IMG/VR virus record: IMGVR_UViG_3300035208_005701
Origin: a virus
Lineage: Duplodnaviria; Heunggongvirae; Uroviricota; Caudoviricetes
Direction: 5' to 3' (one strand)
DNA length: 64,000 nt
Translations under genes and position numbers: made by a program
Notes under the pieces: model-generated
Told to the model about the DNA's origin: nothing
Databases searched by the model: none
The model's input: only the letters and a program-made list of their open reading frames with translations
Part shown: positions 9,611 to 45,651 of the stretch, piece by piece
Numbering within the stretch: the first letter of the stretch is position 1
Layout of the letters: the number at the start of each line of letters is the position of its first letter

Positions 9611-9913
9611 ATGAAATGGAAATTACCTAAAATTGGAGATGTTAGAATAGTTAATAAATTTCTTTGGAAGCCTTTAGAGATCAATGGAGAAAAAAGATGG
9701 TTTGAAAAAGTAAAAATACAACAAATTTTTACTAAAGAAATATTTGAACCAAGTAATAAGTATTTAAAAGATGATCCTGAAGCTAGATTTTCTCCGCATA
9801 GTTTTTATATTCATGGAGAGTTTAGATGGATAGATGTAAAATTTATCGATTCAGTAATACAAGATGGAGAAATATATAACAATGAAATGGCAAGTACAAA
9901 AATTAAAAAATGA
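9611..9913 (+). CDS. Hypothetical protein, first of two tandem paralogs (MKWK...KFLWKPLEINGEKRWFEKVKIQQIF)
   Basis: Shares the ...KFL..PLE(I/L)NGEKRW(F/L)E.VKI.QIF block with the next ORF. Confidence 0.4.
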   Translation: MKWKLPKIGDVRIVNKFLWKPLEINGEKRWFEKVKIQQIFTKEIFEPSNKYLKDDPEARFSPHSFYIHGEFRWIDVKFIDSVIQDGEIYNNEMASTKIKK

Positions 9914-10052
9914 AAATGAAAGAATTATAACTAAATTTTTAATATTTCCATTGGAGCTAAATGGAGAAAAAAGATGGTTAGAATTTGTAAAAATAAAACA
10001 AATATTTTTTAAAGGTAACTGGTTAAATACTGAATTTTCAGAACGGAGTTAA
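9885..10052 (+). CDS. Hypothetical small protein, second tandem paralog (start moved to ATGAAATGG giving MKWQVQ...; overlaps the upstream paralog in another frame)
   Basis: N-terminus MKW matches paralog 1; conserved block ITKFLIFPLELNGEKRWLEFVKIKQIF. Confidence 0.35.
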   Translation, partial: KWQVQKLKNENERIITKFLIFPLELNGEKRWLEFVKIKQIFFKGNWLNTEFSERS

Positions 10053-13838: not shown

Positions 13839-13926
13839 AAGAAAATTAAATAATATAAATTTTTGCGACTTAACTACAGGAACTGGAAATTTTGTATTAG
13901 CAAATGGAAATGTTGTTATTCATAAT
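13816..13926 (+). mobile_element. Split-intein C-fragment (37 aa) at the start of the C-terminal topoisomerase polypeptide
   Basis: MKIRKINKRKLNNINFCDLTTGTGNFVLANGNVVIHN followed by S. The length and pattern match DnaE-type IntC sequences (...HNFALKNGFIASN). Confidence 0.65.
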
Positions 13927-14280
13927 AGTCATATTACTACATTATTAATGATTGTATTTTTAAAACTAGTCCCTGAATTAATAAAAAAAGGTCACATTTT
14001 TACAGCAGAGATGCCTCTTTATGGTGCTCAAGTTGGAAAAGTATTTACTCCTTTTTATACAGATGAGGATGTAGAAAAATTTAAATTATCTAATCCTAAT
14101 GTCAAATTACAAAGATATAAAGGTTTAGGTGAAATGAATCCAGATCAATTGAAAGTTTGTTTATTAGATTCTTCTAGACGATTGCATAAAATTGAATTTC
14201 CTGATAATAGCGAAGATCTTTTAAAACTTATGATAGATGCTGATCTCAAAAGACAATTGGTACAAAGGGAGGAAGAATGA
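13816..14280 (+). CDS. IntC plus the C-terminal part of the GyrB-like topoisomerase II subunit (completes the Toprim and tail)
   Basis: After HN: SHITTLLMIVF (GyrB SHIRTLLLTFF) ... YKGLGEMNPDQL (GyrB KGLGEMNP.QL). Confidence 0.75.
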   Translation: MKIRKINKRKLNNINFCDLTTGTGNFVLANGNVVIHNSHITTLLMIVFLKLVPELIKKGHIFTAEMPLYGAQVGKVFTPFYTDEDVEKFKLSNPNVKLQRYKGLGEMNPDQLKVCLLDSSRRLHKIEFPDNSEDLLKLMIDADLKRQLVQREEE

Positions 14281-20899: not shown

Positions 20900-20911
20900 T
20901 TAAAAATTTAT

Positions 20912-21273
20912 GGGGGAGTAAAGGTTTCGACGTGGTAAATTAAGTATGAATTGCATGTAGAGGATGATCGTTGGCCTCTTAAATAATCGATTAAAAAATA
21001 GACGAAAATTCTATTGATTTTTCTCCATTATCTCTTGCTGCATAAGTGAGACCAATTCTTAGGGATATTTCGACTTGAGAATTGACATAATTGAAATTGC
21101 AGGTTGAATAATTCGTTAAATTGTATTCAAATAAGAATCTTTAAATTAACTAGAATCAATATATAATAGTTTGTTGAATATATAGATTTTAAATTATTAA
21201 TACGAACTAAACATGTGAATGAAGTTTATATAGTATTTATTACGGATCTGGGTTCGACTCCCAGCTCTTCCAT
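20912..21273 (+). ncRNA. ssrA: tmRNA (SsrA-like), one-piece, about 362 nt
   Basis: 5' GGGGGAG-taaaGGTTTCGACG (compare GGGGCUGAUUCUGGAUUCGACG). 3' T-arm ctggg-TTCGACT-cccag, then ctcttcc pairing with the 5' gggggag, and discriminator A. Internal tag frame 21001..21045 is gac gaa aat tct att gat ttt tct cca tta tct ctt gct gca TAA (..DENSIDFSPLSLAA*), preceded by aaaaaaTAGac as in the E. coli resume context. Confidence 0.8.
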
Positions 21274-21280
21274 TTATAAT

Positions 21281-21344
21281 GTATAGGGGCGGAGTACATT
21301 TGTCGCTTAAATCGCCTGCACTGTGAAAGGAATAGAACCTATAC
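21281..21344 (+). terminator. Long hairpin (gtatagg ... cctatac, with an inner ggcg ... cgcc stem) followed by ttatttta. A likely terminator or processing structure after the tmRNA
   Basis: Read directly. It is too short and lacks a T-loop, so it is not a tRNA. Confidence 0.45.
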
Positions 21345-21404
21345 AATTATTTTATTAAGGAGGAAGTTTGTAATTTATTTCAATTTATATACTAAGGAGA
21401 TATA

Positions 21405-22285: not shown

Positions 22286-23170
22286 ATGAATCCAGTAAAA
22301 AACAAGTTTTATGTTGATAAAAAAATAAGTTCTACTAATGGCTTAGATTTATGGATGAAGATGGAAGAAAAATCAAAGGAATATATTTCTGATTACAAAA
22401 GTAAATTTGAATCAAAAATAGTTTTTGAAAAATCAAAATGGTATTGTTTATGTTTTTTAAGTGATTTACATTTTGGATCGGATGGAGTTAATTATAAAAA
22501 GGCTAGAGAGGATGCAGAATTAATAGGGAGTAATCCTTATACATTTTCTGTATTAGGAGGTGATTATATTGATAATTTTATTAGTGCTAAAATAATAGAA
22601 CCATTAATACAAGCAACTACTACTCCATCTCAACAAATAACTTTATTTGAAGAATATTTAAAATTTTTTAATAAAAATATAATGTTAATGATAAGTGGAA
22701 ATCATGATGACAGAACAAAGAAAATAACAGGTTTGGATTTTTTAAAGGTGATAGCTGATAAAGAAAAAATTTTATATTCACCTGATGTTCATATATTTTC
22801 TGTGAAAAATGGAAATGCTAATTATACTCTTTCAATAAGACATTCTACTAGATTTTCATCTATGTATAATTATACACATTCTGTTAAACAATCTAGAAGA
22901 TTCGGAGAACATGAATATGATATAGGAGTAATATGTCATCAGCATACTCCAGCAGTTGAAGATTGTTATATACAAGGTAATCATTTTATAGCTATTAGAA
23001 CTGGAAGTTATAAAGTTGCAGATTCTTATTGTAAAAAGACAGATTTTCCAGAATCTAAACCAATATCTCCTTGTGTAATTTTAGCACCAAATGAAAAGAA
23101 AATGATTTCAATGAAATATTTAGATGAAGCTATTGATTTTGTAACTTATAAAAATAAAAAAGGAAAATGA
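22286..23170 (+). CDS. Calcineurin-like metallophosphoesterase
   Basis: Motifs DLHFG, GGDYID, GNHDD, and H.H later (HQHTP). Confidence 0.6.
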   Translation: MNPVKNKFYVDKKISSTNGLDLWMKMEEKSKEYISDYKSKFESKIVFEKSKWYCLCFLSDLHFGSDGVNYKKAREDAELIGSNPYTFSVLGGDYIDNFISAKIIEPLIQATTTPSQQITLFEEYLKFFNKNIMLMISGNHDDRTKKITGLDFLKVIADKEKILYSPDVHIFSVKNGNANYTLSIRHSTRFSSMYNYTHSVKQSRRFGEHEYDIGVICHQHTPAVEDCYIQGNHFIAIRTGSYKVADSYCKKTDFPESKPISPCVILAPNEKKMISMKYLDEAIDFVTYKNKKGK

Positions 23171-23173
23171 AAT

Positions 23174-23470
23174 ATGGCAAAAATTACACCTAAAAAAGAA
23201 ATTTTGGAAACCGCAAAGAATTGCAAGAAACAAAACAAAAAAAGAATTATTACTCTAGAAGAGGCTAAAGCTATATGGTTAGTATGGGATAGAGTGAATA
23301 AAAAAAAATTTTCAAAACAAATAGGTATTAATTCAAATAAACTTAGATCTTTATATCAATTTTTACAAGATAATATGGATGCAAATTCTCAGGATGATTT
23401 GTCTGATTCAGATTTTGAAAAATATGTAAAGGAGTTTAATGAGTGCCCAATGTTACAACGTGGTAAGTAA
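23174..23470 (+). CDS. Hypothetical protein (98 aa)
   Basis: ORF only. Confidence 0.35.
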   Translation: MAKITPKKEILETAKNCKKQNKKRIITLEEAKAIWLVWDRVNKKKFSKQIGINSNKLRSLYQFLQDNMDANSQDDLSDSDFEKYVKEFNECPMLQRGK

Positions 23471-23663
23471 TAAAACTGAAGATGAATTATTTAAATTAAA
23501 AGATGATGTTAATTGTTGGTTACGATTAGAAATAGCTTCTAAGCTCACAAGTCAAGATAAATTATGGCTGATGAAAGATGATAAAAATTTTAGAGTTCGA
23601 GAATTGGTTAGAAAGAGACTTGTGGGCGATTATAGAATAGCACTTGAATTGTTGAATATGTAA
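23439..23663 (+). CDS. Short HEAT-like (PBS-lyase-type) repeat protein, paralogous to 32930..33442
   Basis: ...WLRLEIASKL.SQDKLWLMKDDKNFRVRELVRKRL, the same D.N..VR.EV..KL repeat. Confidence 0.4.
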   Translation: MSAQCYNVVSNKTEDELFKLKDDVNCWLRLEIASKLTSQDKLWLMKDDKNFRVRELVRKRLVGDYRIALELLNM

Positions 23664-25003: not shown

Positions 25004-25846
25004 ATGTACCAAATAAATAGTGATTACTTATATAGAATAGGTTCTTCTCATTCTGTATGTCAAGATTATTGCATATCTGGTAATTTAAGACAAATGATGC
25101 CTTATATTATTATTGCAGATGGATGTTCAAGTTCTCCTCAAGTAGATGTTGGATGTAGAATTTTAGTTCATTGTGCTAAATGGCAATTGGATGTATCTTT
25201 AATATATAATCAACATACAGAACATCTTGATTCATTTGCTGATATAATGGGGGATAGAATAATTAAAGATGCTGATATTATAAAGAGAAATCTAAATTTA
25301 CATGATCAAAGTTTAGATTCTACTTTATTAATTGCATTTATATATCATGGAAATATTAATATTATAACTTACGGAGATGGTAATTTTCTAATAAAGAGAC
25401 GAGATGATATCATAACCAATACTAGATTATCATACTCTAGTGGTGCCCCATATTATTTAAATTATCTTACAAATAAAGAAAGAAATGAAAGATATAAAAA
25501 GGAATTTAAAGATTCGGTATTTGAATCTGAAGTGATAATTAATAAATCTTCTACTAAAATTGAATACCCTTTTAGTCACCATTTAACATATCAATGTCCA
25601 ATTCAAGATGTTGAATTTCTTTTATTAGCTAGTGATGGATTGACTACTTGGGAAGATAAATTTCATAATTTTATTTATATTCCACCTCAAGAATTCTTGA
25701 ATTTTAAAAATACTACAGGGGAATTTGTAACAAGAAGAATAAACAGAATAACAAAAGATATGAAAGAAAGAAATATTAGTCATTACGATGATTTAAGCAT
25801 AGCTGGATTTCATATTCAGGAGGTTGATAATGGAATATCAGATTAA
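25004..25846 (+). CDS. PP2C-like Ser/Thr phosphatase (tentative)
   Basis: IIADGCSSS...VG and LLASDGLTTWED resemble the PP2C Asp/Gly-rich metal-binding motifs. Confidence 0.5.
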   Translation: MYQINSDYLYRIGSSHSVCQDYCISGNLRQMMPYIIIADGCSSSPQVDVGCRILVHCAKWQLDVSLIYNQHTEHLDSFADIMGDRIIKDADIIKRNLNLHDQSLDSTLLIAFIYHGNINIITYGDGNFLIKRRDDIITNTRLSYSSGAPYYLNYLTNKERNERYKKEFKDSVFESEVIINKSSTKIEYPFSHHLTYQCPIQDVEFLLLASDGLTTWEDKFHNFIYIPPQEFLNFKNTTGEFVTRRINRITKDMKERNISHYDDLSIAGFHIQEVDNGISD

Positions 25847-27545
25847 AGATATTCAAACAAAATCAATTAATTCAGTATCATTGACAAATGCTCATTTTAT
25901 AACTGAAGGTGGAGAAGGAAAAGTATTTGGAAAAAATGATACAATATATAAAATTTATATAGAACCTAAAAAAATGATTTCTCTATCTAAAATACATGAA
26001 CTTTCTTATTTAGATAAAGATAATATATTAAAACCATTAAATATTATACTTGATAAAAAAGGTATACAAATCGGATTTACTATGAAATGGTTAAAAAATT
26101 CTACTCCGATATGTAAATTATTTACAAGTGATTTTTGGACTAGATTTAATATCAATAATAAGATTATTTCAGAGCTAGTTAAAAATATGATTAATGATAT
26201 TAAATACATTCACAGTAAAAATTGTTTAATAGTAGATGGAAATGAAATGAATTATCTTATAGATTCTAAGAATTTTATTTTTCCATATTTTATTGATGTA
26301 GATAGTTATCAAACTTCTAGTTTTCCAGCAACAGCTATAATGACATCTATTAGAGATTTACATTCAAATACTTTTTCTGAATTAACTGATTGGTTTTCTT
26401 TTGGTATTATTTCTATTCAATTATTTATAGGAATACATCCATTTAAAGGGACTCATCCAGATTATTCTAAAAAAGATTTAGAGAAAAGAATGAAAGATAA
26501 CATTTCTATATTTAATAAAGATGTAAGACTTCCAGCTACTGTTAGAGATTTAAATTGTATTCCAAAAGAATATAAAGATTGGTATATTAAATTATTTGAA
26601 AAGGGAGAAAGATTGCCTCCACCTCAAATAGGAATTGTTACTGTTTCAATAATTAATAAAAAGATTATAAATAATTCAGATTCTTTTAAGATATCATTAT
26701 TTAAAGAAATAGAAAATGATATAGTAAAAATTGATGATGAAGGAAATATTTATTCAAAAATAAAAATTTATATTGATAAAGGAGAATATGATAGTAATGT
26801 AGATTCAGATTTAATTTATTCTATTAAATCTTTTACTCCGATCAAAGTTCATATAAATGAAAAAAAAATGATCTTAGAAAAATTAAATGGTGAAAAAATT
26901 AATTGTATATATGAATGTAATAGTAAAACATTAATAGATAACCATCTTTATATTTTAAATGATGATAAATTATTGGCTATAGAGATAGATGAAATTGGTA
27001 AAACTTTTATTCCAGTAGTTAAAACCTTTTGGAATGTTTTGCCTAATTCTACTAAATTGTATTCTGGAATTATTTATCAAGATATTTTAGGACTTCCATA
27101 TTTCAACTTGCCATATATCTCTAAAAATGGAAATCGAGCATGTATGACTAAGTTAATTAGTGAATTAAAGAAATATAAAATAGTTGAAATGAAGAATGAT
27201 AAAAATGTGATTTTTGTCATTGCTTTTAAAAATGGTAAATATGACAGATTTATTTTTAAAGTCAATGATGATTATTCTGAATATAATTGTCAGAAATTTG
27301 AAGATGTGACATATCATGTTCCGAATTTTGTCACTCTTGATAATGGGGTGGTTGTATCTATTAATGATGATGATCAAGTAGAAATTTTTAGTAGAAGTTT
27401 GTTAAAATCAGATATCAATATAATAGAAGATAAACATATAAATTATAATATGAAATTGTGGAAAAAGGGAGTGAATGTTTTTATAACAGAAGAAAATAGA
27501 ATGTATAATTTTTCAATGAAAAAAAATGAAAGGGAAATAGTATGA
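25830..27545 (+). CDS. Eukaryote-like Ser/Thr protein kinase-like protein
   Basis: IHSKNCLIVDGNEMNYLID (catalytic-loop-like), FIDVDS (DFG-like) and DWFSFGIISIQLFIGIHPF (the APE / D.WS.G region). Confidence 0.55.
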   Translation: MEYQIKDIQTKSINSVSLTNAHFITEGGEGKVFGKNDTIYKIYIEPKKMISLSKIHELSYLDKDNILKPLNIILDKKGIQIGFTMKWLKNSTPICKLFTSDFWTRFNINNKIISELVKNMINDIKYIHSKNCLIVDGNEMNYLIDSKNFIFPYFIDVDSYQTSSFPATAIMTSIRDLHSNTFSELTDWFSFGIISIQLFIGIHPFKGTHPDYSKKDLEKRMKDNISIFNKDVRLPATVRDLNCIPKEYKDWYIKLFEKGERLPPPQIGIVTVSIINKKIINNSDSFKISLFKEIENDIVKIDDEGNIYSKIKIYIDKGEYDSNVDSDLIYSIKSFTPIKVHINEKKMILEKLNGEKINCIYECNSKTLIDNHLYILNDDKLLAIEIDEIGKTFIPVVKTFWNVLPNSTKLYSGIIYQDILGLPYFNLPYISKNGNRACMTKLISELKKYKIVEMKNDKNVIFVIAFKNGKYDRFIFKVNDDYSEYNCQKFEDVTYHVPNFVTLDNGVVVSINDDDQVEIFSRSLLKSDINIIEDKHINYNMKLWKKGVNVFITEENRMYNFSMKKNEREIV

Positions 27546-28351
27546 CTAAAGATTTATTAAAAACTCATTTAATTATTATTGATCCGCAAAATGATTTTTG
27601 TGATTCAAAAGGTTCATTATTTGTTGGTGGTGCAGATAAAGATATGAATAAACTTTCAAAAATGATAAATAGAATTGGACATAAATTAGATGATATACAT
27701 GTCACTATGGATAGTCATCATTTAATAGATGTTGCTCATCCTATTATGTGGATTGATTCTAAAGGAAATCATCCAACTCCATTCACAATAATTACAGTTA
27801 ATGATCTCAAATCTGGAAAATGGACAACGACTAATCCAATGTTTCAATCAAGAATGATTTCATATTGTGAAACTCTTGAGAAAAATTCTAGATATCCTTT
27901 GTGCATATGGCCTCCACATTGTCTTATTGGAAGTTGGGGTCATAATATATATCCAGAATTATATGAAGCTATAACTAAGTGGGAAGAATCTTGTTTTGCA
28001 ATGGTTGATTATGTTACTAAAGGAAGTAATATTTGGACTGAACATTATAGTGCTGTTCAAGCAGATGTTCCAGATGCAACTGATCCAGGTACTATGTTAA
28101 ATACAAGATTAATTCAAACATTACAAGAAGCTGATATTATACTTATTGCAGGGGAAGCATTATCTCATTGTGTAGCAAATACAATTAGAGATATTGCTAA
28201 TAATTTTGGAGAAGAAAATATCAAGAAATTTTTACTTCTTGAAGATTGTTGTTCTTCAGTTACAGGATTTGATCAATTAGGAATTGATTTTATAAAAGAA
28301 ATGACTAAGAGAGGAATGAAAATATCCAAATCTACAGAATTTATGAAATAA
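27542..28351 (+). CDS. Isochorismatase-family cysteine hydrolase, nicotinamidase (PncA)-like
   Basis: THLIIIDPQNDFCDSKGSLFVGGA matches the PncA hallmark (V)D.QNDFC..GGSL.V.G. Later ALSHCVANT matches the catalytic-Cys region. Confidence 0.65.
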   Translation: MTKDLLKTHLIIIDPQNDFCDSKGSLFVGGADKDMNKLSKMINRIGHKLDDIHVTMDSHHLIDVAHPIMWIDSKGNHPTPFTIITVNDLKSGKWTTTNPMFQSRMISYCETLEKNSRYPLCIWPPHCLIGSWGHNIYPELYEAITKWEESCFAMVDYVTKGSNIWTEHYSAVQADVPDATDPGTMLNTRLIQTLQEADIILIAGEALSHCVANTIRDIANNFGEENIKKFLLLEDCCSSVTGFDQLGIDFIKEMTKRGMKISKSTEFMK

Positions 28352-28386: not shown

Positions 28387-29133
28387 ATGCCAAAGTTAAT
28401 AGCAGATAAGGGAATGGAACAATTAAAAATAGATGGTGGTGGAAATTTTCAATTTTCAGCTACTCGATTGGATGATCTTGGAGCTACAGAATATACTCTT
28501 GTTACTATAGCTGTAGACAAATCTGGAAGTGTAAATTCATTTGTTAAAGAACTTTTAAAAGCTATCGTAATGATAATAGAAGCATGTAAAAAATCACCGA
28601 GAGCAGAAAATTTAATGATTCGTCTTATAACTTTTAATTATGAATTAGAAGAAATTCATGGTTTTAAATTATTAAGTACTATTGATACAAAGGATTATAT
28701 TGAACCAAATTGTAGTAGTCAAACAGCATTATTTGATGCTACTTATAGTTCAATTGGAGCAACATTAACTTATGCAAAAAATCTTATTGATCAAGATTTT
28801 AATGCAAATGGAATTTGTTTTATTATTACAGATGGATGTGATAATGCTTCAAAGACAACTCCTTCTATGATAGCAGAAATGACCAATGATGCTTTTAAAA
28901 ATGAGGAAATTGAATCATTGATAACTGTACTTGTTGGAATTGGTGCACCTGATAATGCAGTGAAATCTGAATTAGATAAATTTTTTAATGTTGCTAGATT
29001 AACTCAATATGTTGATATTGGTGATGCTACTCCACAAAAGTTAGCTAAACTTGCTGCATTTGTAAGTAAGTCTATTAGTTCTCAAAGTAGTGCTCTTGGT
29101 AGCGGAGCTGCTAGTCAACCACTAAGTTTTTAA
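28387..29133 (+). CDS. von Willebrand factor A (vWA) domain protein
   Basis: MIDAS motif TIAVDKSGSVNSF (DxSGS) and a later Thr/Asp pattern. Confidence 0.6.
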   Translation: MPKLIADKGMEQLKIDGGGNFQFSATRLDDLGATEYTLVTIAVDKSGSVNSFVKELLKAIVMIIEACKKSPRAENLMIRLITFNYELEEIHGFKLLSTIDTKDYIEPNCSSQTALFDATYSSIGATLTYAKNLIDQDFNANGICFIITDGCDNASKTTPSMIAEMTNDAFKNEEIESLITVLVGIGAPDNAVKSELDKFFNVARLTQYVDIGDATPQKLAKLAAFVSKSISSQSSALGSGAASQPLSF

Positions 29134-29141
29134 TTAATTTA

Positions 29142-29185
29142 AAACTGGAGAGGATGTAAATATAATCTTCTCCAGTTTATTTTAC
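29142..29185 (+). terminator. Rho-independent terminator (aaactggagagga ... tcttctccagttt, then tattttac)
   Basis: 13-bp stem with one mismatch, then a T-run, 8 nt after the vWA stop. Confidence 0.55.
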
Positions 29186-29406
29186 AAGGAGGAATTTAAA
29201 ATGACTAAATTAATAATATCGGTGATGGGCATGTATGATTGATGAGAATGATCAGGAGATCTGGGATGAGCAATTTGAGAAGTTAATAAAGGACTTGCCA
29301 CCAGAAACAATGATATCAATTGTGGATTGTCATATATGGATACGTTCTTAGAGTGGCATTCAATGGGTTATATTGTATCTTACTAAGATACCATTTAGTT
29401 TTTATT

Positions 29407-29497
29407 AGAGATAGAAAGGTAACCGCCAACCCAACGGTATTAGGTGATGATCAAAGATGGAATGCAATGATTATATCAGTCCTGCCTTTCTATCTCT
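29407..29497 (+). promoter_or_regulatory. Long inverted repeat (13-bp perfect stem agagatagaaagg / cctttctatctct enclosing about 65 nt) immediately upstream of the GNAT gene. Candidate cis-regulatory RNA or terminator-antiterminator
   Basis: Read directly. The stem is followed by ttattttaaaaGGAGaaaatATG. The enclosed loop contains ccgccaacccaacgg. Confidence 0.3.
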
Positions 29498-29517
29498 TTA
29501 TTTTAAAAGGAGAAAAT

Positions 29518-29985
29518 ATGAAAGTTATAGATCAGTTCATACTGGAATCAGTTAGTAACATTTCTTTACATCCATTTGATGAGAAATTGTATTTAAGTTT
29601 AATAAGTAAACATAATCAACAAGATTCACATGTTGCATTTAGAGTAAATAATTATGATAATGCATATACTATCAAATATGATAATGAAGTATGTGGATTT
29701 ATATCTTTTGTCCGTAGTAATTTTGATAAAAATCAGGCATTTATACAAATTGTTATAATTCGAAAATTTAGAGGAAGAGGTATATTACAAGTATCAGAAG
29801 ATACGGTGGATAAAAATAATAAATTAAAACGATTATTGGCTTCAATTAAAATAAAAAATATAGCATCTATTAAAGCTCATTTAAAAGCAGGGTTTAAGTA
29901 TTTCCCTGAGGATAAACTTAATGAATTAAGATTAAAGAAAAACTTGGATAAGAATATGACGAGATTGTACAAAGATTATAAATAA
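29518..29985 (+). CDS. GNAT-family N-acetyltransferase (start moved to the ATG after AAAAGGAG; the track ORF starts at 29320 and runs through the structured leader)
   Basis: FIQIVIIRKFRGRGILQ (acetyl-CoA motif A, R..G.G) and a ...HLKAGFK tail. Confidence 0.5.
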   Translation: MKVIDQFILESVSNISLHPFDEKLYLSLISKHNQQDSHVAFRVNNYDNAYTIKYDNEVCGFISFVRSNFDKNQAFIQIVIIRKFRGRGILQVSEDTVDKNNKLKRLLASIKIKNIASIKAHLKAGFKYFPEDKLNELRLKKNLDKNMTRLYKDYK

Positions 29986-30020
29986 AATAATTTTATATAT
30001 AATTAAAAGGACAAATAATT

Positions 30021-30295
30021 ATGATTCAAGTAAGAGATATTAAAGAAACTTTTTGCCAATTATTTGATTGCAATGATAATCTTATTGGAACTATAACAAG
30101 TTTTTTATCTTTACAAGATGTCAGATTACAAATAAAAAATTAAATATCAAATATAATTCTGAATACAGTGGCTATTATTTATTGTGGAATGATAAAAAGA
30201 TTTTAATTTTTAATAATGGAACTTTGGAATCATGGCCTTTAGGATTTTTTGATATTATGGATAAGCAGTTAGATGAATTTCTTAATTTGAAATAA
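30021..30295 (+). pseudogene. Decayed copy of the 32639..32914 gene (premature stop after ...LQIKN, then a frameshift)
   Basis: MIQVRDIKETFCQLFDCNDNLIGTITSFLSLQDVRLQIKN* versus the intact MFQIKDIKETTCILFDCNDNIIGTISSFLSLQDVRLQIRNLN.... The tail ...LESWPLGFFDIMDKQLDEFLNLK is recovered in another frame. Confidence 0.6.
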
Positions 30296-30310
30296 TTAAA
30301 AATTTAACAA

Positions 30311-30590
30311 ATGAAATTATATATGTTTGAAGATAAAACACAAGATGAAATTTGGGAAATGATAACAGTTGGGAAGTAAGATTTAATGCTGTGAAAAAGT
30401 TAATTGATCAAGATCGAATTTGGGAAATGAGAAATGATAAAGATTGAGTGGTGAGATTTTCAGTTGTACTTAAATTAACAGATCAAAACAAATCATGACA
30501 GATGAGAAATGATGAACATGAAGGAGTGAGAAGAGAAGTTGAAAAGAAATTAGAAGGAGATTATAAGATAGCTCACTTATTAAGTCTTTA
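30311..30590 (+). pseudogene. Decayed copy of the HEAT-repeat gene 32930..33442 (frameshifts plus two TGG to TGA changes)
   Basis: MKLYMFEDKTQDEIWEM... aligns to MKIYMIENKIQDEIWEM.... It then runs gataaagatTGAgtggtgaga versus the intact gataaaaatTGGtatgtgaga, and caaatcaTGAcagatgagaaatgat versus cggatttGGGaaatgagaaatgat. The C-terminus GDYKIAHLLSL is retained. Confidence 0.65.
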
Positions 30591-30607
30591 ACATAAAGGA
30601 GAATTAA

Positions 30608-30901
30608 ATGCAATCATCAATAGAAACAATTAATTTAAATTTACCTGAATCTAGAATAGGGAAATTTGCAATCAAGAAAAAATTACTTAGAAAAGGATCT
30701 TATTGTGATATTGTTAATAAAAGAGAAGCTTTTTTCACAGGACAAAGATCAACATCAAAAATATTAGAAACAGATTTAATAATAGATGTTCTTTCTGAAA
30801 CAGGTTATGGAACATGGATACATATCCACAAGAATTTCAATATCGAAATGAAAATGGTTATTGGAATGACTTTATGGCTAGATGGTTTTTTAAAGGAATA
30901 G
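30608..30901 (+). pseudogene. Truncated, divergent-tail copy of the first 75 codons of the 33457..34305 methyltransferase-like gene
   Basis: MQSSIETINLNLPESRIGKFAIKKKLLRKGSYCDIVNKREAFFTGQRS...SETGYGTW matches MQIETINLNLPESRIGKFTIKKKLLRKGTYCDIINKREALYTGQKS...SETDYGTW. It then diverges and stops after 97 codons. Confidence 0.5.
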
Positions 30902-31183
30902 ACAAGGAATAAATTGAAAAACTTGTTCCTAAAGAAGGTATACATAAAAATAAAGCACTAGCTGCTGTTGGTGCTATATTAAGATTTTTTGCACCAAAAC
31001 ATGAACATAAAGAAGCTGGTGCAGCTTATCTTATGTCTGAGTGGTTTATAAAACCTGAAATTAATAAATAGAAAGGAGTGATCAAGATGATTAAACTAAT
31101 AGTAGGTTCGGGTCTATTTTTACTGATATTTTCAGTAATATACTTTGTACTACAAAATTACGTTCTAAAAAAGGAGAATAAGA

Positions 31184-31435
31184 GTGAACAGAAGAACTAT
31201 TAAACAGACAGAATCAAAATCAAATGAATTAAGTGATTTAATAACCAAAAAAATAGAGGAGTTCAAGATGCTAACGATTTCAACAAAGATCATTTCATTT
31301 TTAGTAGCAATTGCACTTGCATTAATAATTGCACCGAACATGTATGAAAATGTACCAGTTGGAAAATATCATATTACTCAAAGTCCTTTTACTGGGACAT
31401 TGAGATCCAGAATAAATCCTGGTCCATATATGTAA
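31184..31435 (+). CDS. Small membrane protein (possible NfeD-like partner of the SPFH protein)
   Basis: Single TM segment ISFLVAIALALIIAP; immediately upstream of the SPFH gene. Confidence 0.4.
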   Translation: MNRRTIKQTESKSNELSDLITKKIEEFKMLTISTKIISFLVAIALALIIAPNMYENVPVGKYHITQSPFTGTLRSRINPGPYM

Positions 31436-31447
31436 AATTTTGCACAT

Positions 31448-32569
31448 GTGTATCTATTTCCTGTATCCGAAACATTTTATTTTACAAATGATACAGAAGG
31501 CGGTCATGGTGACTGGAGTATTAAGGTACAATTTAATGATGGTGCTACTGCGAGGATATCTGGTACTTGTCGTATTGGTTTACCAGTTACTAAAGATGAG
31601 GCGTTAGCTTTAGTTACTAAATGGGGATTTAGAACATGGGTTGAAATAGAGGATAAATTATTACTTCCAATAGTTAGAAGAAGTTTAATGATGACTGCTA
31701 ACTTAATGTCATCTAAAGAAAGTTATTCTGATAAACGTGTTGAATTCTTTTCAGCTACATGGGACCAAATTGAAAATGGTATTTATGTTACGAAAGATAT
31801 AACTGAGAAAGTAACTGATCCAATTAGTGGTCAAATTATAACTAAAATAGGCAAGACTCCTTTGATAGATGAAAAGGGTCAGAAGGTTAGAGAACATAAT
31901 CCTTTAAAAGGAACAGGATTAACTCTTTCTAATTTTGAAATAAAAGATTTCATATATGAAGATGTTGTACAGAAACAGATATCATCACAACAAGCTGCGG
32001 TGATGGAAGTTCAGACAGCTAGAGCTAATGCTTTAAAGGCTGATCAGGCTGCTTATACTGCTGAAGCTGAAGGTAAAGCAAAAGTGATGACAGCAAAATA
32101 TGAAATGGAACAAGAGAAAGTTCGTGCTACAGTTGGAGCAGATAAAGAAAGAGAAGTAGCAACAATTAATGCACAGAAATTAGTTGATGTTGCAAATAAA
32201 AATAAAGAACAAGCTTTAGTTCAAGCTTCTCAGGAAAAAGAAGTTGCAGCTATCGGTTTGGAAAAAGCCAAACTAGAGAAACAAACTCAGATAGAATTAG
32301 GTCAAGGAGAATCTGAAAGAAAGAGATTAGTACTTGAAGCTGATGGAGCTCTTGCTCAGAAGTTAGATACACTTGCAAAAATTCATTCCTCATGGGCGGA
32401 TGCTTTCAGTAAGAGACAAGTTCCGTCAATTATGTATGGTGGAGTTGAAGGCGGAACAGATACAAATGCTAATACATTTATGTCTATACTTCAAACTAAG
32501 TTATTGAAAGATCTTTCATTGGATGCTGATATAAAAGGTCAGAATGATAAAAAGATAGAACAGAAGTAA
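31448..32569 (+). CDS. SPFH / band-7 (prohibitin/flotillin/HflK-like) domain protein with a coiled-coil tail
   Basis: Band-7-like N-domain, then a long Ala/Glu/Lys-rich coiled coil (QAAVMEVQTARANALKADQAAYTAEAEGKAKV...). Confidence 0.6.
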   Translation: MYLFPVSETFYFTNDTEGGHGDWSIKVQFNDGATARISGTCRIGLPVTKDEALALVTKWGFRTWVEIEDKLLLPIVRRSLMMTANLMSSKESYSDKRVEFFSATWDQIENGIYVTKDITEKVTDPISGQIITKIGKTPLIDEKGQKVREHNPLKGTGLTLSNFEIKDFIYEDVVQKQISSQQAAVMEVQTARANALKADQAAYTAEAEGKAKVMTAKYEMEQEKVRATVGADKEREVATINAQKLVDVANKNKEQALVQASQEKEVAAIGLEKAKLEKQTQIELGQGESERKRLVLEADGALAQKLDTLAKIHSSWADAFSKRQVPSIMYGGVEGGTDTNANTFMSILQTKLLKDLSLDADIKGQNDKKIEQK

Positions 32570-32638
32570 ATTAATAAAAGAAGGGGTAGGGTTATATGAT
32601 TATAATCCTACTTCTTTATTTGCACTTGAAAGGAAATT

Positions 32639-32914
32639 ATGTTTCAAATTAAAGATATAAAAGAAACTACTTGTATATTGTTTGATTGTAATGATAATAT
32701 TATTGGAACTATATCAAGTTTTTTATCTTTACAAGATGTTAGATTACAAATACGAAATTTAAATATAAAAAATGAATCTAAATATAGCGGTTATTATTTA
32801 TTATGGGATCATATAAAAATTAAAATTTATACTGACGGATCATTAGAATCATGGCCTTTAGGATTTTTTGATATTATGGATAGACAATTAGATGAATTAC
32901 TTGAATTGAAATAA
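32639..32914 (+). CDS. Hypothetical protein (91 aa); intact parent of pseudogene 30021..30295
   Basis: Full-length ORF; the duplicated copy is decayed. Confidence 0.45.
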   Translation: MFQIKDIKETTCILFDCNDNIIGTISSFLSLQDVRLQIRNLNIKNESKYSGYYLLWDHIKIKIYTDGSLESWPLGFFDIMDRQLDELLELK

Positions 32915-32929
32915 TTAAAAATTTAACAA

Positions 32930-33442
32930 ATGAAAATATATATGATAGAAAATAAAATACAAGATGAAATTTGGGAAATGAGAACTGATAACAATTGGTA
33001 TGTGAGATTAGAAGTTGTAAACAAATTAGAAGATCAAAACCGGATTTGGGAAATGAGAAATGATAAAAATTGGTATGTGAGAAGAGAAGTTGTAAGAAAA
33101 TTAGAAGATCAGAACCTAATTTGGGAAATGAGAAATGATGAAAGCTTATGCGTGAGAAGAGAAGTTATACTTAAATTAACTGATCAAAACCGGATTTGGG
33201 AAATGAGAAATGATAAAAATTGGTATGTGAGAAGAGAAGTTGTAAGCAAACTAAAAGATCAAAATCGAATTTTGGAAATGAGCAATGATCAAGATTATGA
33301 TGTGAGAAGAGAAGTTATACTTAAATTAACTGATCAAAACCGAATTTGGGAAATGAGAAATGATGAAAGTGAATATGTGAGAGTAGAAGTTGCAAAGAAA
33401 TTAGAAGGTGATTATAAATTAGCACATTTTTTATTAGAATAA
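32930..33442 (+). CDS. HEAT-like (PBS-lyase-type) repeat protein, six or seven near-identical 23-aa repeats
   Basis: Repeats IWEMRNDKNWYVRREVVRKLEDQNR / IWEMRNDESLCVRREVILKLTDQNR ... (D.N.YVR.EV..KL). Confidence 0.6.
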   Translation: MKIYMIENKIQDEIWEMRTDNNWYVRLEVVNKLEDQNRIWEMRNDKNWYVRREVVRKLEDQNLIWEMRNDESLCVRREVILKLTDQNRIWEMRNDKNWYVRREVVSKLKDQNRILEMSNDQDYDVRREVILKLTDQNRIWEMRNDESEYVRVEVAKKLEGDYKLAHFLLE

Positions 33443-33456
33443 TAAAGGAGAACATA

Positions 33457-34305
33457 ATGCAAATAGAAACAATTAATTTGAATTTACCTGAATCGAGAAT
33501 AGGGAAATTTACAATCAAAAAAAAATTACTTAGAAAAGGAACTTACTGTGATATTATTAATAAAAGAGAAGCTTTATATACAGGGCAAAAATCAAAATCA
33601 AAAATATTAGAAAAAGATTTAATAATAGATGTCCTTTCTGAAACAGATTATGGGACATGGATGACTACATCTCCACAAGAAATTAGACAAATGAGAGAAG
33701 ATATTAAAAATATATCAGGTAAAGTATTAATTGGAGGATTAGGATTGGGAGTTGTTGCTAAATTACTTGATGAAAAACCAGAAGTGACTGATATATTAAT
33801 AGTAGAGCAATCTCAAGAAATTATTGATTTAGTTTTCGACAATCTCAATTTAAAAAAGGCTAGTGTTACAAAGTATGATTTATTTTCTTATTTAGAAAGA
33901 ATTCCATTATCTTTTGATTATGGTTACTATGATATATGGTGTCCTACTGGGGAAGATGTATTATTTACTCATATTCGTCCATTAAGAAAACTTTCTAAAA
34001 AGAGAATTAAAAAAGAAGTTATATGTTGGCAAGAAAAAACTATGATTGGTCAAATGATTTTTAATATATTTTCAACTTTAGAAGTTTCAGATGAAAAGTC
34101 TGGATGGAAAATACTTAATGATGAACAATTTAAAAGAAGTTATAATTTTTCAAGGACGACTTGGCCATTTCAAAATTGGTATAGAACTATTAAGCCAGAT
34201 ATTGAATTTGCTAAAATTATGGCTAAAAATTATGTTAACACATATGTAGATATAGATGAATGGAATAATCAATGGAAGAAGTGGGATTATGAAACAAAGA
34301 ATTGA
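33457..34305 (+). CDS. Putative SAM-dependent methyltransferase-like (Rossmann) protein
   Basis: GKVLIGGLGLGVVAKLL (motif I-like) and ILIVEQSQEIIDL (motif II-like acidic end). Confidence 0.45.
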   Translation: MQIETINLNLPESRIGKFTIKKKLLRKGTYCDIINKREALYTGQKSKSKILEKDLIIDVLSETDYGTWMTTSPQEIRQMREDIKNISGKVLIGGLGLGVVAKLLDEKPEVTDILIVEQSQEIIDLVFDNLNLKKASVTKYDLFSYLERIPLSFDYGYYDIWCPTGEDVLFTHIRPLRKLSKKRIKKEVICWQEKTMIGQMIFNIFSTLEVSDEKSGWKILNDEQFKRSYNFSRTTWPFQNWYRTIKPDIEFAKIMAKNYVNTYVDIDEWNNQWKKWDYETKN

Positions 34306-34456
34306 AAAATGTCCTATTTGTGGGAACAATGTTAAGATTTATTATGAATGTCTTAATTCTCATTTGTATTGTGAATGCGGATTGAAATTTTATGGTCGAA
34401 CACATGACATAGATGATATAATTGATGAATTTAATAATAGAAAATTTAAGAAATGA
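34289..34456 (+). CDS. Small zinc-ribbon protein (start at the internal ATG; alternative start 34256)
   Basis: CPICGNN ... CECG. Confidence 0.35.
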   Translation: MKQRIEKCPICGNNVKIYYECLNSHLYCECGLKFYGRTHDIDDIIDEFNNRKFKK

Positions 34457-34462
34457 GTTAAT

Positions 34463-35014
34463 ATGAAAGATAAAAATATTATTTTAGCTTTAAAAGAATC
34501 GTTAAGATTACAAAATCATTATGCTGAACAATTAAATTCCTGTGATAATGGGCAACGTATGAAATTTAATAATATTGAAGGATGGATAAATAATTTAAAA
34601 TCTACAGGAGTAATTGATAGATTAAATTATTCACATCAACAATTATTTAGAGTTCCAAATGTAAGTTTCAATCCATCAGATGTTTTATTTTTTATTGGGA
34701 CGGGAGATAAAATATGGTTAGACAAATATATTGTCAACATGAATTCAGCAAGATATTATGTTTTTAAAAATAATTTACAATGCGTAACATGTGGAATAAG
34801 TGGAAAAGTATTTTATTTGGAAAAACAACTTATGCAAAAAAATTCAAAAGTTGATAAATTTCATTTTAATTTGTATGCTATTGATGATTATGGGATTGAG
34901 ATTTTGATGACGAAAGATCATATAATTCCATTATCTAAAAAGGGACAAAATAATAAAAAAAATTATCAAACCATGTGTCAAATTTGTAACAGTAAAAAAT
35001 CTAATAACATCTAA
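34463..35014 (+). CDS. HNH endonuclease
   Basis: C-terminal HIIPLSKKGQNNKKNYQTMCQICNSKKSN (H-N-H with CxxC). Also CVTCG upstream. Confidence 0.65.
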   Translation: MKDKNIILALKESLRLQNHYAEQLNSCDNGQRMKFNNIEGWINNLKSTGVIDRLNYSHQQLFRVPNVSFNPSDVLFFIGTGDKIWLDKYIVNMNSARYYVFKNNLQCVTCGISGKVFYLEKQLMQKNSKVDKFHFNLYAIDDYGIEILMTKDHIIPLSKKGQNNKKNYQTMCQICNSKKSNNI

Positions 35015-41682: not shown

Positions 41683-42765
41683 ATGTACAAATTTAAAGAA
41701 AATAAAGAGTTCAAAATAGTTTCTTCTTCAGATTATAATTATGTATTTAATAAGTTAAATGGACAATTTGCAAGATGGGGAAAGACAAAAGAAGATGATC
41801 CGCAACAGGCTCCAGCTCCAGAGATACTTGATTTAGAAATAAGTTCTGGAGGAGATTGTTTAGGTATGTGTCCTTTCTGCTATAAAGGTAATGGTGGAAC
41901 GCAAGAAACTTTTAATATGACTTTCGAAGATTTTAAAATTATATTTGATAAAATGCCAAAGTTTTTAACTCAGATAGCTTTTGGTATTATGAATATTGGA
42001 ACTAATCCAGACTTTTTTAAAATGATGGAATACTCTAGAGAACATGGAGTTATTCCAAATTATACTTGTCATGGATTAGATGTTACTAAAGAATATGCTG
42101 AACGAACATCTAAATTATGTGGAGCTGTTGCTGTTAGTATAATTAATAAAGAAAAAACTTTTGAATCTATAAAAATGTTTGCTGATGAAGGAATGACTCA
42201 AGTAAATATTCATTATATGGTTTCAAAAGAACGATATGATGAAGCTTTTAAATTAATTGATGAAATAGCAAAAAGAAAGATTCCTGTCAATGCTGTTGTA
42301 TTTTTGCAGTACAAGTCTAAAGGAAGAGGTACTGATAAATTCTCTCCTGTTTGTAGTGTTGAAGATTATAAGAAATTAATTGAACATGCTACAAATGCAG
42401 ATGTAAGAATTGGTTTTGATTCTTGTTCTTGTCCATTGTGGTACAAAACTATAGAGGGAACAATAGAGGAAAAGAAGTCTGTAATGGGTGAACCTTGCGA
42501 AGCAGCATGTATGAGCTCTTATATTAATTGTAAAGGAGAATTCTACCCATGTTCTTTTACTGAAGGAACTACCGGATGGGAAAATGGGATAGATGTATTT
42601 TCTGCTACTGATTTTATTAAAGATATATGGAATCATCCAAGAGTAAAAGATTGGAGAATTAGATTATTGGGTACTACTAATAACTGTAATTGTAAGTTCA
42701 AAAAGATATGTAGAAAATGTCCTATATATGATATAACAGATTGTAAAAATATAAAGGATAAATAA
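41683..42765 (+). CDS. Radical SAM enzyme with a C-terminal SPASM-like Cys-rich domain
   Basis: CLGMCPFCY (Cx3Cx2C plus aromatic) after ...LEISSGGD. C-terminal auxiliary-cluster-like cysteines: DSCSCPLWY ... CEAACMSSYINCKGEFYPCSF ... NNCNCKFKKICRKCPIYD. Confidence 0.8.
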   Translation: MYKFKENKEFKIVSSSDYNYVFNKLNGQFARWGKTKEDDPQQAPAPEILDLEISSGGDCLGMCPFCYKGNGGTQETFNMTFEDFKIIFDKMPKFLTQIAFGIMNIGTNPDFFKMMEYSREHGVIPNYTCHGLDVTKEYAERTSKLCGAVAVSIINKEKTFESIKMFADEGMTQVNIHYMVSKERYDEAFKLIDEIAKRKIPVNAVVFLQYKSKGRGTDKFSPVCSVEDYKKLIEHATNADVRIGFDSCSCPLWYKTIEGTIEEKKSVMGEPCEAACMSSYINCKGEFYPCSFTEGTTGWENGIDVFSATDFIKDIWNHPRVKDWRIRLLGTTNNCNCKFKKICRKCPIYDITDCKNIKDK

Positions 42766-43959: not shown

Positions 43960-44380
43960 AATGAACGAACATGACAACATCGAATCAATAAAACCTACAG
44001 AATTAAAAACTCAAATTAATGTTGATAGTAAAATTTTAAGTGATAAATTTTTTGATAGTGAACTTTATGCAATAGATTGTATAATAAATGAGTCAGTTGA
44101 AAAAATGAAAGAAAGGATTAAATTTGAAAAAAAGATAAAAAAACAAACTACAAACTATAGAAAGAATATAAATCTGTTGTTTGATAAATATGATAAAATG
44201 GATAAAAAAGATTTTTTGAATGAAGAAAATAAAATAATTAAAAAATATAATAAAAGTATTGATCCAGAATATAAAAAATATAAATTTATTATAGATAAAA
44301 TAGAAAATAAATATAAAAAAATAATTGCTAATATTGATCTAAAACAAAAATACTTATTATCACAAAAGGCATTTGATTAA
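43946..44380 (+). CDS. Hypothetical Lys-rich protein (144 aa)
   Basis: About one quarter Lys; ATGA junctions on both sides. Confidence 0.4.
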   Translation: MMDIKMNEHDNIESIKPTELKTQINVDSKILSDKFFDSELYAIDCIINESVEKMKERIKFEKKIKKQTTNYRKNINLLFDKYDKMDKKDFLNEENKIIKKYNKSIDPEYKKYKFIIDKIENKYKKIIANIDLKQKYLLSQKAFD

Positions 44381-45651
44381 TGATTAAAGCATCAAGAGCT
44401 GATCAACTTGTTGAACATAAATGTTGGTATTGTAAACAAATAGTGAAATATAAACATTTCTTTCAAATAAGTAAGAAGTTAGGTTTAGTAAAATGTCCAT
44501 ATTGCTTAAAAGATTATACTATATCATATCCTATTTTAAAATTTGTTGATAGTAAATCAGCAAATGAAACGAGATTATGTAATGTTGGAACTTATAGACT
44601 TAAAGAAAATGATGAAATAAAAATAATAACCTCTCCTAGATATAATTATGTATACAACAAAAAAAATAATTCTTTTTCCAGATGGGGTGATACTCAAAAT
44701 ATAGATCTCATGTTTGCACTATCACCAGAAATAGTAGATTTAGAAATCAGTTCAAAACATGAACAATCTATTTCTAATATGACATTTTCTACTTTTAAAA
44801 TAATATTTGATAAAATACCAAAGTTTTTAACTCAAATAGTTTTTCATATTTCTGATACTACAACTAATCCAGATTTATTTAAAATGATGGAATATAGTAG
44901 AAAGTATGGAATTATGACAAATTGTATTTATTCTGGATCTGATATAATAGATGATCATATTTCAAAAATGATCAAATTATGCAGATCAATAGTTATTAAT
45001 TTAATAGATAAAGAAAAAACATTTCAATTGATAAATAAATTAATATTAAATAAGATGAAAAATATTTATATTAATTTTATATTATCTAAACAATCATTAG
45101 ATGAAGCTTTTAAATTAATAGATGAAATTAAAGAAAGAAAAATGCCTGTAAAGGCTATTATATTTTCTCAATACAAATCAAAAGAAATGGAGGTTGATAA
45201 ATTTGAACCAGTGACAAGTGTAGATATTTATAAGAAAATAATAGACTACTCTAGAACTAAACAAGTTAATATATTATTTGATTCTTGTTCATGTGCTCTG
45301 TGGTATAAAAGTATAGAGAAAACAGATCAAGAAAATCTAGCAAATTATGGAAATCAGTGTGAAAGTGGAATTTTCAATGGATTTATTAATTATAAAGGTG
45401 AATTTTTTCCATGTTCTTTTATAGAAGGAACTAATGATTGGGAAGAAGGATTAAATATATTATCTGCTGAAAATTTTATAAGTGATGTTTGGAATCATGA
45501 TAGAATTAAATCATGGAGAATTAATCTTTATTGCACTGTGCAAAATTGTTGTTGTAAATTTAAAAGAATGTGTAAAAAATGTCCAGTATATAATGTTATA
45601 CATTGTAAAGGACAATATTTTAACAAGTACGAATATCTGAAAGCTAAATAA
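44380..45651 (+). CDS. Degenerate paralog of the 41683 radical SAM/SPASM enzyme. It lacks the Cx3Cx2C SAM cluster, has gained an N-terminal 4-Cys zinc ribbon, and retains the C-terminal Cys motifs
   Basis: Aligned region EIVDLEISSKHEQSISNMTFSTFKIIFDKIPKFLTQIVF versus EILDLEISSGGDCLGMCPFCYKG...FNMTFEDFKIIFDKMPKFLTQIAF. N-terminal CWYCKQ...CPYC. C-terminal DSCSCALWY ... CESG...PCSF ... QNCCCKFKRMCKKCPVYN. Confidence 0.65.
   Translation: MIKASRADQLVEHKCWYCKQIVKYKHFFQISKKLGLVKCPYCLKDYTISYPILKFVDSKSANETRLCNVGTYRLKENDEIKIITSPRYNYVYNKKNNSFSRWGDTQNIDLMFALSPEIVDLEISSKHEQSISNMTFSTFKIIFDKIPKFLTQIVFHISDTTTNPDLFKMMEYSRKYGIMTNCIYSGSDIIDDHISKMIKLCRSIVINLIDKEKTFQLINKLILNKMKNIYINFILSKQSLDEAFKLIDEIKERKMPVKAIIFSQYKSKEMEVDKFEPVTSVDIYKKIIDYSRTKQVNILFDSCSCALWYKSIEKTDQENLANYGNQCESGIFNGFINYKGEFFPCSFIEGTNDWEEGLNILSAENFISDVWNHDRIKSWRINLYCTVQNCCCKFKRMCKKCPVYNVIHCKGQYFNKYEYLKAK

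Follow-up and report, generated by a model that had tools for sequence, protein, structure and literature searches.

A probable recombination scar in a large uncultured phage: a partial gene-block duplication among disabled genes

When a phage genome carries an intact gene block and a broken copy of it on the same molecule, has the broken copy been decaying ever since a duplication in place, or did it arise by another route? We examined this question for positions 30021–34305 of a 64,000-nucleotide (nt) stretch of the IMG/VR virus record IMGVR_UViG_3300035208_005701 (Caudoviricetes), which is referred to as the window. A previous reading made from the DNA letters only (the sequence-only reading) had described a duplicated block consisting of a small-protein gene (gene 1), a HEAT-repeat gene (gene 2, or the HEAT gene) and a methyltransferase-like gene (gene 3), of which one copy (copy A) decays into pseudogenes beside the intact one (copy B). 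Our analysis indicates that the locus is probably a recombination scar, in which one illegitimate crossover would have produced a partial duplicate that was later inactivated by small lesions.

The duplicated block and the lesions in copy A

The segmental duplication within one molecule is real. Self-BLAST of the window gave two matches between the copies, 30017–30540 against 32635–33166 (80% identity, E = 7e-136) and 30353–30837 against 33204–33684 (80%, E = 1e-125), and one contig (L005, Logan SRR18595299) links the copies, being 100% identical to window 30234–32875 and joining copy A, the spacer with an SPFH gene and the start of copy B. The identities in ungapped blocks were 85% for gene 1, 85% for the gene 1/HEAT boundary and 92% for the N-terminus of gene 3. 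The lesions were read from a MAFFT alignment of the two copies and from the sequence itself. The copies and their genes, including open reading frames (ORFs) with lengths in amino acids (aa), are as follows.

30017–30841, + strand: copy A, partial, with gene 1, the HEAT gene and the N-terminal ~75 codons of gene 3 (self-BLAST, alignment, repeat families D1–D3 and D6)
32635–33688, + strand: copy B, that part of the intact block which is duplicated (self-BLAST, alignment)
30021–30295, + strand: gene 1A, pseudogene with a 1-nt deletion within 30135–30141 that leads to TAA at 30141–30143
32639–32914, + strand: gene 1B, 91 aa, from a large family of 85–95-aa proteins, with a DUF3696-like C-terminal helix
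30311–30591, + strand: gene 2A, HEAT-repeat pseudogene with a 7-nt deletion, two TGG>TGA changes and 3 repeat units of 75 nt
32930–33442, + strand: gene 2B, HEAT-repeat protein of six 25-aa units (Pfam HEAT, E = 1e-12; 75-nt tandem array)
30608–30901, + strand: 97-aa ORF, the N-terminal beta-domain fragment of gene 3A plus an out-of-frame tail (alignment; exact ORF in four assemblies)
33457–34305, + strand: gene 3B, 282 aa, predicted class-I S-adenosylmethionine (SAM)-dependent transferase (spermidine-synthase-like fold; GGLGLG in the Rossmann domain)

The lesions are not assembly or sequencing errors, because separate assemblies reproduce them with 100% identity. The matching contigs came from Logan SRR18595299 and SRR6484787, JGI 3300014204 and ENA ERZ27247350. 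In addition to L005, the contigs L006, L007 and L008 are 100% identical over 30323–31878, 30333–31878 and 30364–31897, respectively. L009 (JGI 3300014204) is 100% identical over 28480–30155, gene 1 frameshift included, and contains the identical 40-aa ORF of gene 1A. Every lesion is covered at least once by another contig, and the agreement extends over at least two read sets and three assemblers. The circumstance that had been named as fatal to the decay reading, namely indels that are assembly errors in two intact copies, was thus not borne out. Moreover, every lesion listed in the sequence-only reading is present, and copy A is indeed non-functional as a three-gene block.

In genes 1A and 2A, some of the lesions come down to fewer events than had been described. 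In regards to gene 1A, the premature stop and the frameshift both exist and amount to one lesion, not two: the sole 1-nt deletion shifts the frame and thereby brings in the TAA at once. The frame-corrected gene 1A retains all the invariant and near-invariant residues of its family, also those 3′ of the frameshift. In regards to gene 2A, both TGG>TGA changes (30445–30447 and 30496–30498) were confirmed, and they hit the two Trp residues that are conserved in the 25-aa repeat unit IWEMRNDxNWYVRREVxxKLxDQNR. The several frameshifts reported for this gene reduce to one, a 7-nt deletion after 30359 between flanking TGA...TGA; a further indel, of 2 nt at 30582, is located beyond the stop codon, where it has no bearing.

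The HEAT genes differ in length by 225 nt, in frame, with 3 units in A versus 6 in B. Units 2–3 and 4–5 of gene 2B form an internal 150-nt duplication (Tandem Repeats Finder: period 75 with 5.9 copies, also 150 and 225), which argues that the apparent deletion in A is partly an expansion in B. The middle unit of gene 2A is a unit-2/unit-3 chimera. Gene 2B scored 47.4 bits against Pfam HEAT (cut-off 23.5) and 37.2 bits against HEAT_2 (cut-off 27.7). A third HEAT-like ORF of 74 aa at 23439–23663 showed 36–43% identity to the gene 2B repeats in tblastn and had no Pfam or PHROG match of its own.

The joint in gene 3 and the broken spacer

Within gene 3A, 6 nt are inserted in frame after 30612 and 4 nt are missing after 30818. 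Homology to gene 3 does not extend past about 30834–30841, so that only about 75 of the 282 codons were ever copied. In the frame that follows the 4-nt deletion, the 85 codons at 30814–31071 matched PHROG 36680 (E = 5.6e-19, profile positions 26–103 of 116) and 37 database proteins of 101–130 aa with up to 63% identity. In the family alignment this match continues straight across an in-frame TAA. The 26-aa tail of the 97-aa ORF is an out-of-frame read from this phrog_36680 remnant. The truncation and the divergent tail of gene 3 that had been described therefore exist, but the tail belongs to the phrog_36680 family and not to gene 3. The idea that the tail is the C-terminus of gene 3 left by an internal deletion was rejected, as neither gene 3B nor any of 22 homologues showed significant similarity to the tail. 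The features at the joint and in the spacer between the copies are as follows.

30826–30834, + strand: probable recombination joint, CCACAAGAA (Pro-Gln-Glu) (family alignments; putative microhomology)
30826–31071, + strand: 5′-truncated remnant of a phrog_36680-family gene, without ~35 N-terminal codons, with an in-frame TAA at 30910–30912
31078–31203, + strand: apparently intact 41-aa ORF for a small predicted membrane protein of unknown function (ORF list, profile search)
31268–32569, + strand: SPFH/Band-7 gene, split by an in-frame TAA at 31433–31435 (phrog_11908, Pfam Band_7, phage homologues)

The phrog_36680 match and the loss of gene 3 similarity past ~30834 together argue that copy A ends in an illegitimate-recombination joint, at which codon ~75 of gene 3 is fused to an unrelated small phage gene. 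Since the tail was joined in this way, gene 3A was truncated from birth; it never had the catalytic domain, and its short form is not a product of decay. At the joint, P-Q-E is invariant in the gene 3 family (WMTDxPQE), and the phrog_36680 family has I-P-x-(E/Q)-F, of which Pro-x-x-Phe is conserved. A shared CCACAAGAA is a plausible candidate for the crossover microhomology. A crossover at this point would have created an in-frame chimera first, and the 4-nt deletion and the TAA would have broken it later.

The AlphaFold2 model of gene 3B (predicted local distance difference test, pLDDT, 90.8) places residues 13–70 in a separate beta domain, and the Rossmann domain begins after the joint. Gene 3B matched phrog_15480 'methyltransferase' (E = 5e-13) and 21 homologues. 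The top 40 Foldseek matches were all spermidine synthases or aminopropyltransferases (E = 5e-7, probability 1.0, template-modelling (TM) scores 0.3–0.4), with which gene 3B shares the N-terminal beta domain and the Rossmann GGxGxG (PDB 1uir, 1inl, 2o05 and 3o4f). It differs from them in the TM-scores of only 0.3–0.4 and in a sequence similarity that is not significant (best PDB profile E = 0.07); no Pfam match was obtained. The former label "methyltransferase-like" was roughly right for this predicted SAM-dependent transferase with a spermidine-synthase-like fold.

The spacer gene is broken as well. The TAA in the SPFH gene leaves a membrane-anchor ORF (31184–31435) and a 373-aa ORF (31448–32569) in the same frame. 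The fused sequence scored 209.8 bits against phrog_11908 (positions 5–427), the 373-aa part alone 188.7 bits, and Pfam Band_7 28.9 bits against a cut-off of 23.6. Homologues in 42 phage records align in one piece across the TAA, and the single-copy SPFH gene is thus also interrupted by a nonsense codon, which recurs in the contigs L005–L008. Consequently, the decay in progress that had been proposed is real but is not confined to the redundant copy, as both the SPFH gene and the phrog_36680 remnant carry an in-frame TAA. Five disrupted genes lie within 30021–32569 (gene 1A, gene 2A, the gene 3A fragment, the phrog_36680 remnant and the SPFH gene), and among them only one small, possibly intact, membrane ORF remains. 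This stretch and 20900–21404, which bears a transfer-messenger RNA (tmRNA) gene, are the largest internal ORF-poor stretches of the window. A conserved module of phrog_36680, transmembrane and SPFH genes was sought and not found; the homologues occur in unrelated contexts.

Time of inactivation and origin of the locus

The ratio of nonsynonymous to synonymous divergence (dN/dS) between A, with its frames restored, and B was determined by the Nei-Gojobori method. The values were 0.27 for gene 1 (dS 0.49), 0.48 for the HEAT gene (dS 0.44) and 0.33 for the gene 3 N-terminus (dS 0.20). Amino-acid changes were polarised with 24 outgroups for gene 1 (A 6, B 10, ambiguous 6) and with 12 outgroups for the gene 3 N-terminus (A 3, B 5, ambiguous 3), giving totals of 9 in A versus 15 in B. 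Under a decay model in which A was neutral since the split and B constrained, A is expected to carry at least ~77% of the changes and the pairwise dN/dS to be at least ~0.5; the observed share departs from this model (binomial P = 4e-5 against an A share of at least ~0.77). Copy A shows neither a dN/dS near 1 nor an excess of change on the dead lineage, as relaxed selection would produce. Given that A is not more derived and that dN/dS lies at 0.27–0.48, the simplest reading is that the copies diverged as functional genes, mostly under selection, and that A was disabled late or recently. The selection-shaped divergence of gene 3A most likely predates the joint, because no functional enzyme was possible after it. 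Of the former proposal of duplication followed by gradual decay, the decay stands, and A as the faster-evolving copy does not. These sequence comparisons fit recombination of diverged relatives with each other, and likewise two functional paralogues of long standing; slow decay after duplication in place fits less well.

The order of genes at the locus is GNAT – gene 1A – HEAT-A – gene 3A (N-terminus)::phrog_36680 (C-terminus) – small transmembrane gene – SPFH – gene 1B – HEAT-B – gene 3B – Lar – HNH. The last two are as follows.

34256–34456, + strand: Lar-like zinc-ribbon ORF (weak Pfam Lar_restr_allev match), directly 3′ of copy B
34463–35014, + strand: free-standing HNH endonuclease (Pfam HNH, E = 8.5e-9; PHROG HNH families), following the Lar-like ORF

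From this arrangement we infer an order of events in which the relatedness of the donor, the microhomology and the role of the HNH endonuclease are parts of the proposal. A relative X with the order GNAT–gene 1–HEAT–gene 3 would have recombined with a relative Y carrying phrog_36680–transmembrane gene–SPFH–gene 1–HEAT–gene 3–Lar–HNH, out of register, at the PQE microhomology. One such two-parent crossover between diverged relatives would account for the whole arrangement in one step, and the most economical donor would be a diverged relative that co-infected the host cell and had its genes arranged differently at this place. Alternatively, a full duplication within the genome may have been functional for a long time and trimmed later. 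In either case the copies would already have diverged under purifying selection (dS ~0.2–0.5) when A became redundant. The crossover may have occurred during repair of a break made by the HNH endonuclease ~0.8 kb downstream of the gene 3B site, and such a break would be in keeping with the behaviour of homing endonucleases in phages of the T4 type. Copy A would then have been knocked out by slippage deletions at short repeats (1, 4 and 7 nt), AT-biased G>A changes (TGG>TGA twice) and TAA nonsense. The SPFH gene would have been knocked out too, resulting in ~2.5 kb of dead coding sequence.

Phage recombinases join diverged sequences (PMC2327257), and the mosaicism of phages through such exchanges is well documented (PMC8136500; for T4-related phages, PMC2993671). 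The locus resembles this Hendrix-type mosaicism, which arises by homeologous or illegitimate exchange between phages, in that unrelated families abut inside reading frames, with possible microhomology, in an accessory region that lies beside a free-standing HNH endonuclease and contains truncated gene remnants. It differs in the partial duplication of three genes and in redundant genes that are still undeleted.

Several points weigh against a recombination scar with late inactivation. The redundancy of copy A gives no reason for the breakage of the single-copy SPFH gene. The outgroups used for polarisation are distant (40–53% identity) and the counts are small (24 informative sites), and the pairwise dN/dS of gene 1 and the gene 3 N-terminus does not by itself reject 0.5 (P = 0.12). 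The low dN/dS of gene 3A is also compatible with a 97-aa N-domain ORF that is still functional. Furthermore, L006 and L007 (Logan SRR6484787 and JGI 3300014204) share the end base 31878, and the assemblies do not necessarily represent independent reads. This shared end lies inside the SPFH gene and may reflect the same reads or a strain-level breakpoint. Finally, database searches found no relative of more than 52% protein identity with either parental arrangement. GenBank phages gave no match in a DNA search with 29900–34400, phages gave none in tblastn with gene 3B, scans of IMG/VR with gene 3B peptides and a degenerate WPLGFFDIMD pattern returned nothing, and the degenerate pattern likewise returned nothing from metagenome_contigs.

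The best surviving alternative is the one given in the sequence-only reading, a segmental duplication in place with copy A decaying neutrally ever since, which we consider unlikely. The copies are 2.6 kb apart on one molecule, copy A has at least five disabling lesions, the HEAT dN/dS of 0.48 fits one neutral and one constrained lineage, and the pooled dN/dS does not differ significantly from 0.5. As in classical pseudogenisation of duplicate genes, one copy is intact and the other has frameshifts, nonsense codons and a changed repeat-array length. However, the broken copy is not the faster-evolving one, its gene 1 retains the conserved residues when the frame is corrected, one gene was truncated by the event itself, and neighbouring non-duplicated genes decay too. 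One unequal crossover inside a single genome would also have copied phrog_36680 (C-terminus), the transmembrane gene and SPFH ahead of gene 1A, which is not seen; duplication in place would need a second precise deletion and long retention of both copies.

That copy A is partly functional, with the 97-aa ORF acting as a stand-alone beta domain, gene 1A being read by −1 slippage, or both, is improbable. The 97-aa ORF retains a ribosome-binding site, corresponds to a discrete beta-rich domain in the AlphaFold2 model (strands 13–70), has a dN/dS of 0.33 and is no more derived than B; it might, for example, modulate the oligomerisation of gene 3B. In gene 1A, A_AAA_AAT at 30134–30140 has the form of the −1 slippery heptamer X_XXY_YYZ and lies exactly on the lesion, with the TAA directly after it and a conserved downstream half. 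Nevertheless, no stimulatory RNA structure was found 3′ of the heptamer (fold z = −0.40) and no Shine-Dalgarno-like element was seen upstream. Copy B and the aligned gene 1 homologues match as single full-length ORFs with no two-frame arrangement. A programmed −1 frameshift was rejected, and the rescue of gene 1A by slippage keeps a small probability. In addition, the tail of the 97-aa ORF is another gene's out-of-frame read-through, and the intervening HEAT gene is unambiguously dead.

A different interpretation of the block follows from gene 1. An exhaustive HMMER search (E ≤ 1e-3) detected 200 relatives, whereas a word-indexed search of proteins retrieved nothing beyond the gene 1B query. 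The AlphaFold2 model of gene 1B has a pLDDT of 93.5, and a fold search against the PDB gave no significant match. The C-terminal helix (last ~35 residues) matches Pfam DUF3696 (26.5 bits, cut-off 22) and the C-terminus of NsnB in PADLOC (positions 313–344 of 345, E = 5.9e-6). NsnB is the ATPase of Menshen defence, and its helix is the predicted docking site for the effector nuclease NsnC (PMC12065111). Gene 1 differs from NsnB in being a phage protein without an ATPase domain; it is a stand-alone 91-aa protein whose homologues are mostly of 80–100 aa, not the C-terminus of an ABC/OLD-type ATPase, and the link to Menshen is speculation. By this analogy, gene 1, from a widespread phage protein family, would be a decoy of the NsnB–NsnC interface in a counter-defence neighbourhood. 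The copies would record arms-race turnover, in which alleles of co-infecting relatives would have been captured by HNH-triggered, microhomology-mediated repair and the surplus then inactivated. This reading as a whole has a slim chance of being correct.

An artefact in a repeat, with both copies really intact or only one copy present, is very improbable. It is true that in all the other datasets the contigs assembled from short reads end at the HEAT repeat, but three pipelines (Logan, JGI and ENA/MEGAHIT) reproduce every lesion at 100% identity, L005 spans from A into B, and the copies differ at 8–20% of positions, too far apart for collapse or mis-joining.

The weakest alternative, that gene 2A can be read because TGA means Trp (code 4) or because a suppressor tRNA is present, can be dismissed almost entirely: both of its nonsense codons are TGA at conserved Trp positions, but TGA is a normal terminator in the window and the 7-nt deletion and the TAA stops would stay. 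Among the 58 long ORFs of the + strand, 15 end in TGA, usually in an overlap with the following start codon (often ATGA), and read-through of this TGA adds at most 14 codons in 13 of the 15 cases. Trp is encoded by TGG at 157 codons in long ORFs, and the window contains no suppressor tRNA (only tRNA-Pro, tRNA-Leu, tRNA-His and the tmRNA). Code 4 is rejected for these reasons, as it had been before. In crAss-like, Lak and other phages TGA or TAG is reassigned; the in-frame TGA codons of gene 2A resemble this situation, but with TGA as an ordinary stop the phage is not a member of that group.

The phage, its neighbouring genes and the meaning of the locus

The window has a GC content of 26%, and coding is almost wholly on the + strand. 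It encodes homologues of the multisubunit RNA-polymerase subunits beta and beta′, a type II topoisomerase, a helicase, an SMC-like ATPase and an RNA ligase. The best cultured relatives of the beta′-like protein are jumbo phages, at only 27% identity; the source is therefore an uncultured, deeply divergent large phage that is very AT-rich and encodes its own multisubunit RNA polymerase. A 78.9-kb JGI contig also encodes proteins of the locus, as do short contigs of three other datasets. Promoter and terminator scans gave nothing beyond the shuffled expectation, and the Rfam scan found no family within the duplicated region.

A conserved operon of gene 1, the HEAT gene and gene 3 was sought, and only gene 3 was found in relatives (33–52% identity), where it is single-copy and unlinked to gene 1 or the HEAT gene. 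This makes the block a gene neighbourhood rather than a conserved operon or a known system. Upstream of the locus, 25824–28351 contains a 573-aa protein-kinase-like ORF (Pkinase 29.0 bits, below the Pfam cut-off of 31.7) and an isochorismatase/nicotinamidase-like ORF; the gene 3 relatives are instead preceded by genes for a MoxR-type AAA ATPase and a VWA protein (L010 and L012).

Other local paralogues in the window are intact, and duplication therefore recurs in this genome. An older pair at 41683–42765 and 44380–45651 shows 70% nucleotide identity over 849 nt, both members being intact and assigned to phrog_7293 (unknown function). Within 9611–10052, a 100-aa gene is followed by a short overlapping repeat of its N-terminal part (9671–9737 versus 9948–10014, 82% identity).

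Elsewhere in the window, the GyrB-like topoisomerase subunit looks fractured over 10058–14280. ORF 10058–12316 ends in an intein N-splicing domain, the overlapping ORF 12288–13838 matches DUF7487 and weakly REase_MTES_1575 and may be a free-standing endonuclease, and ORF 13816–14280 encodes the C-terminal domain of GyrB. Either a split intein or an intein with a frameshift could explain this layout. The tmRNA gene at 20912–21275 (Rfam RF00023, 105 bits; ARAGORN tag peptide ENSIDFSPLSLAA) lies within a 505-nt gap that is otherwise ORF-free. A metallophosphatase-like ORF in 22286–23470 ends in a TGA at 23168–23170, and the next ORF (23174–23470) continues in the same frame one codon on; this is the sole TGA whose read-through would give a long extension (99 codons).

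In regards to annotation, the ORFs 30021–30143, 30608–30901, 31184–31435 and 31448–32569 are pseudogene fragments and not novel small proteins, and the in-frame TGA codons at the locus are no evidence of recoding. The event is of a known kind in phage genome dynamics, ordinary but unusually clear, in a phage that is itself new and uncultured. The locus opens no new biological question, and the gene 1 family with its DUF3696-like tail is the one lead of wider interest. The locus itself would represent a clear case of how an accessory region is rebuilt, with an out-of-register joint within two unrelated genes, a partial duplication and an inactivation, through small indels and nonsense changes, caught ahead of deletion. 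About 2.5 kb of dead coding DNA persists in it, material of a kind that phage genomes usually purge quickly.

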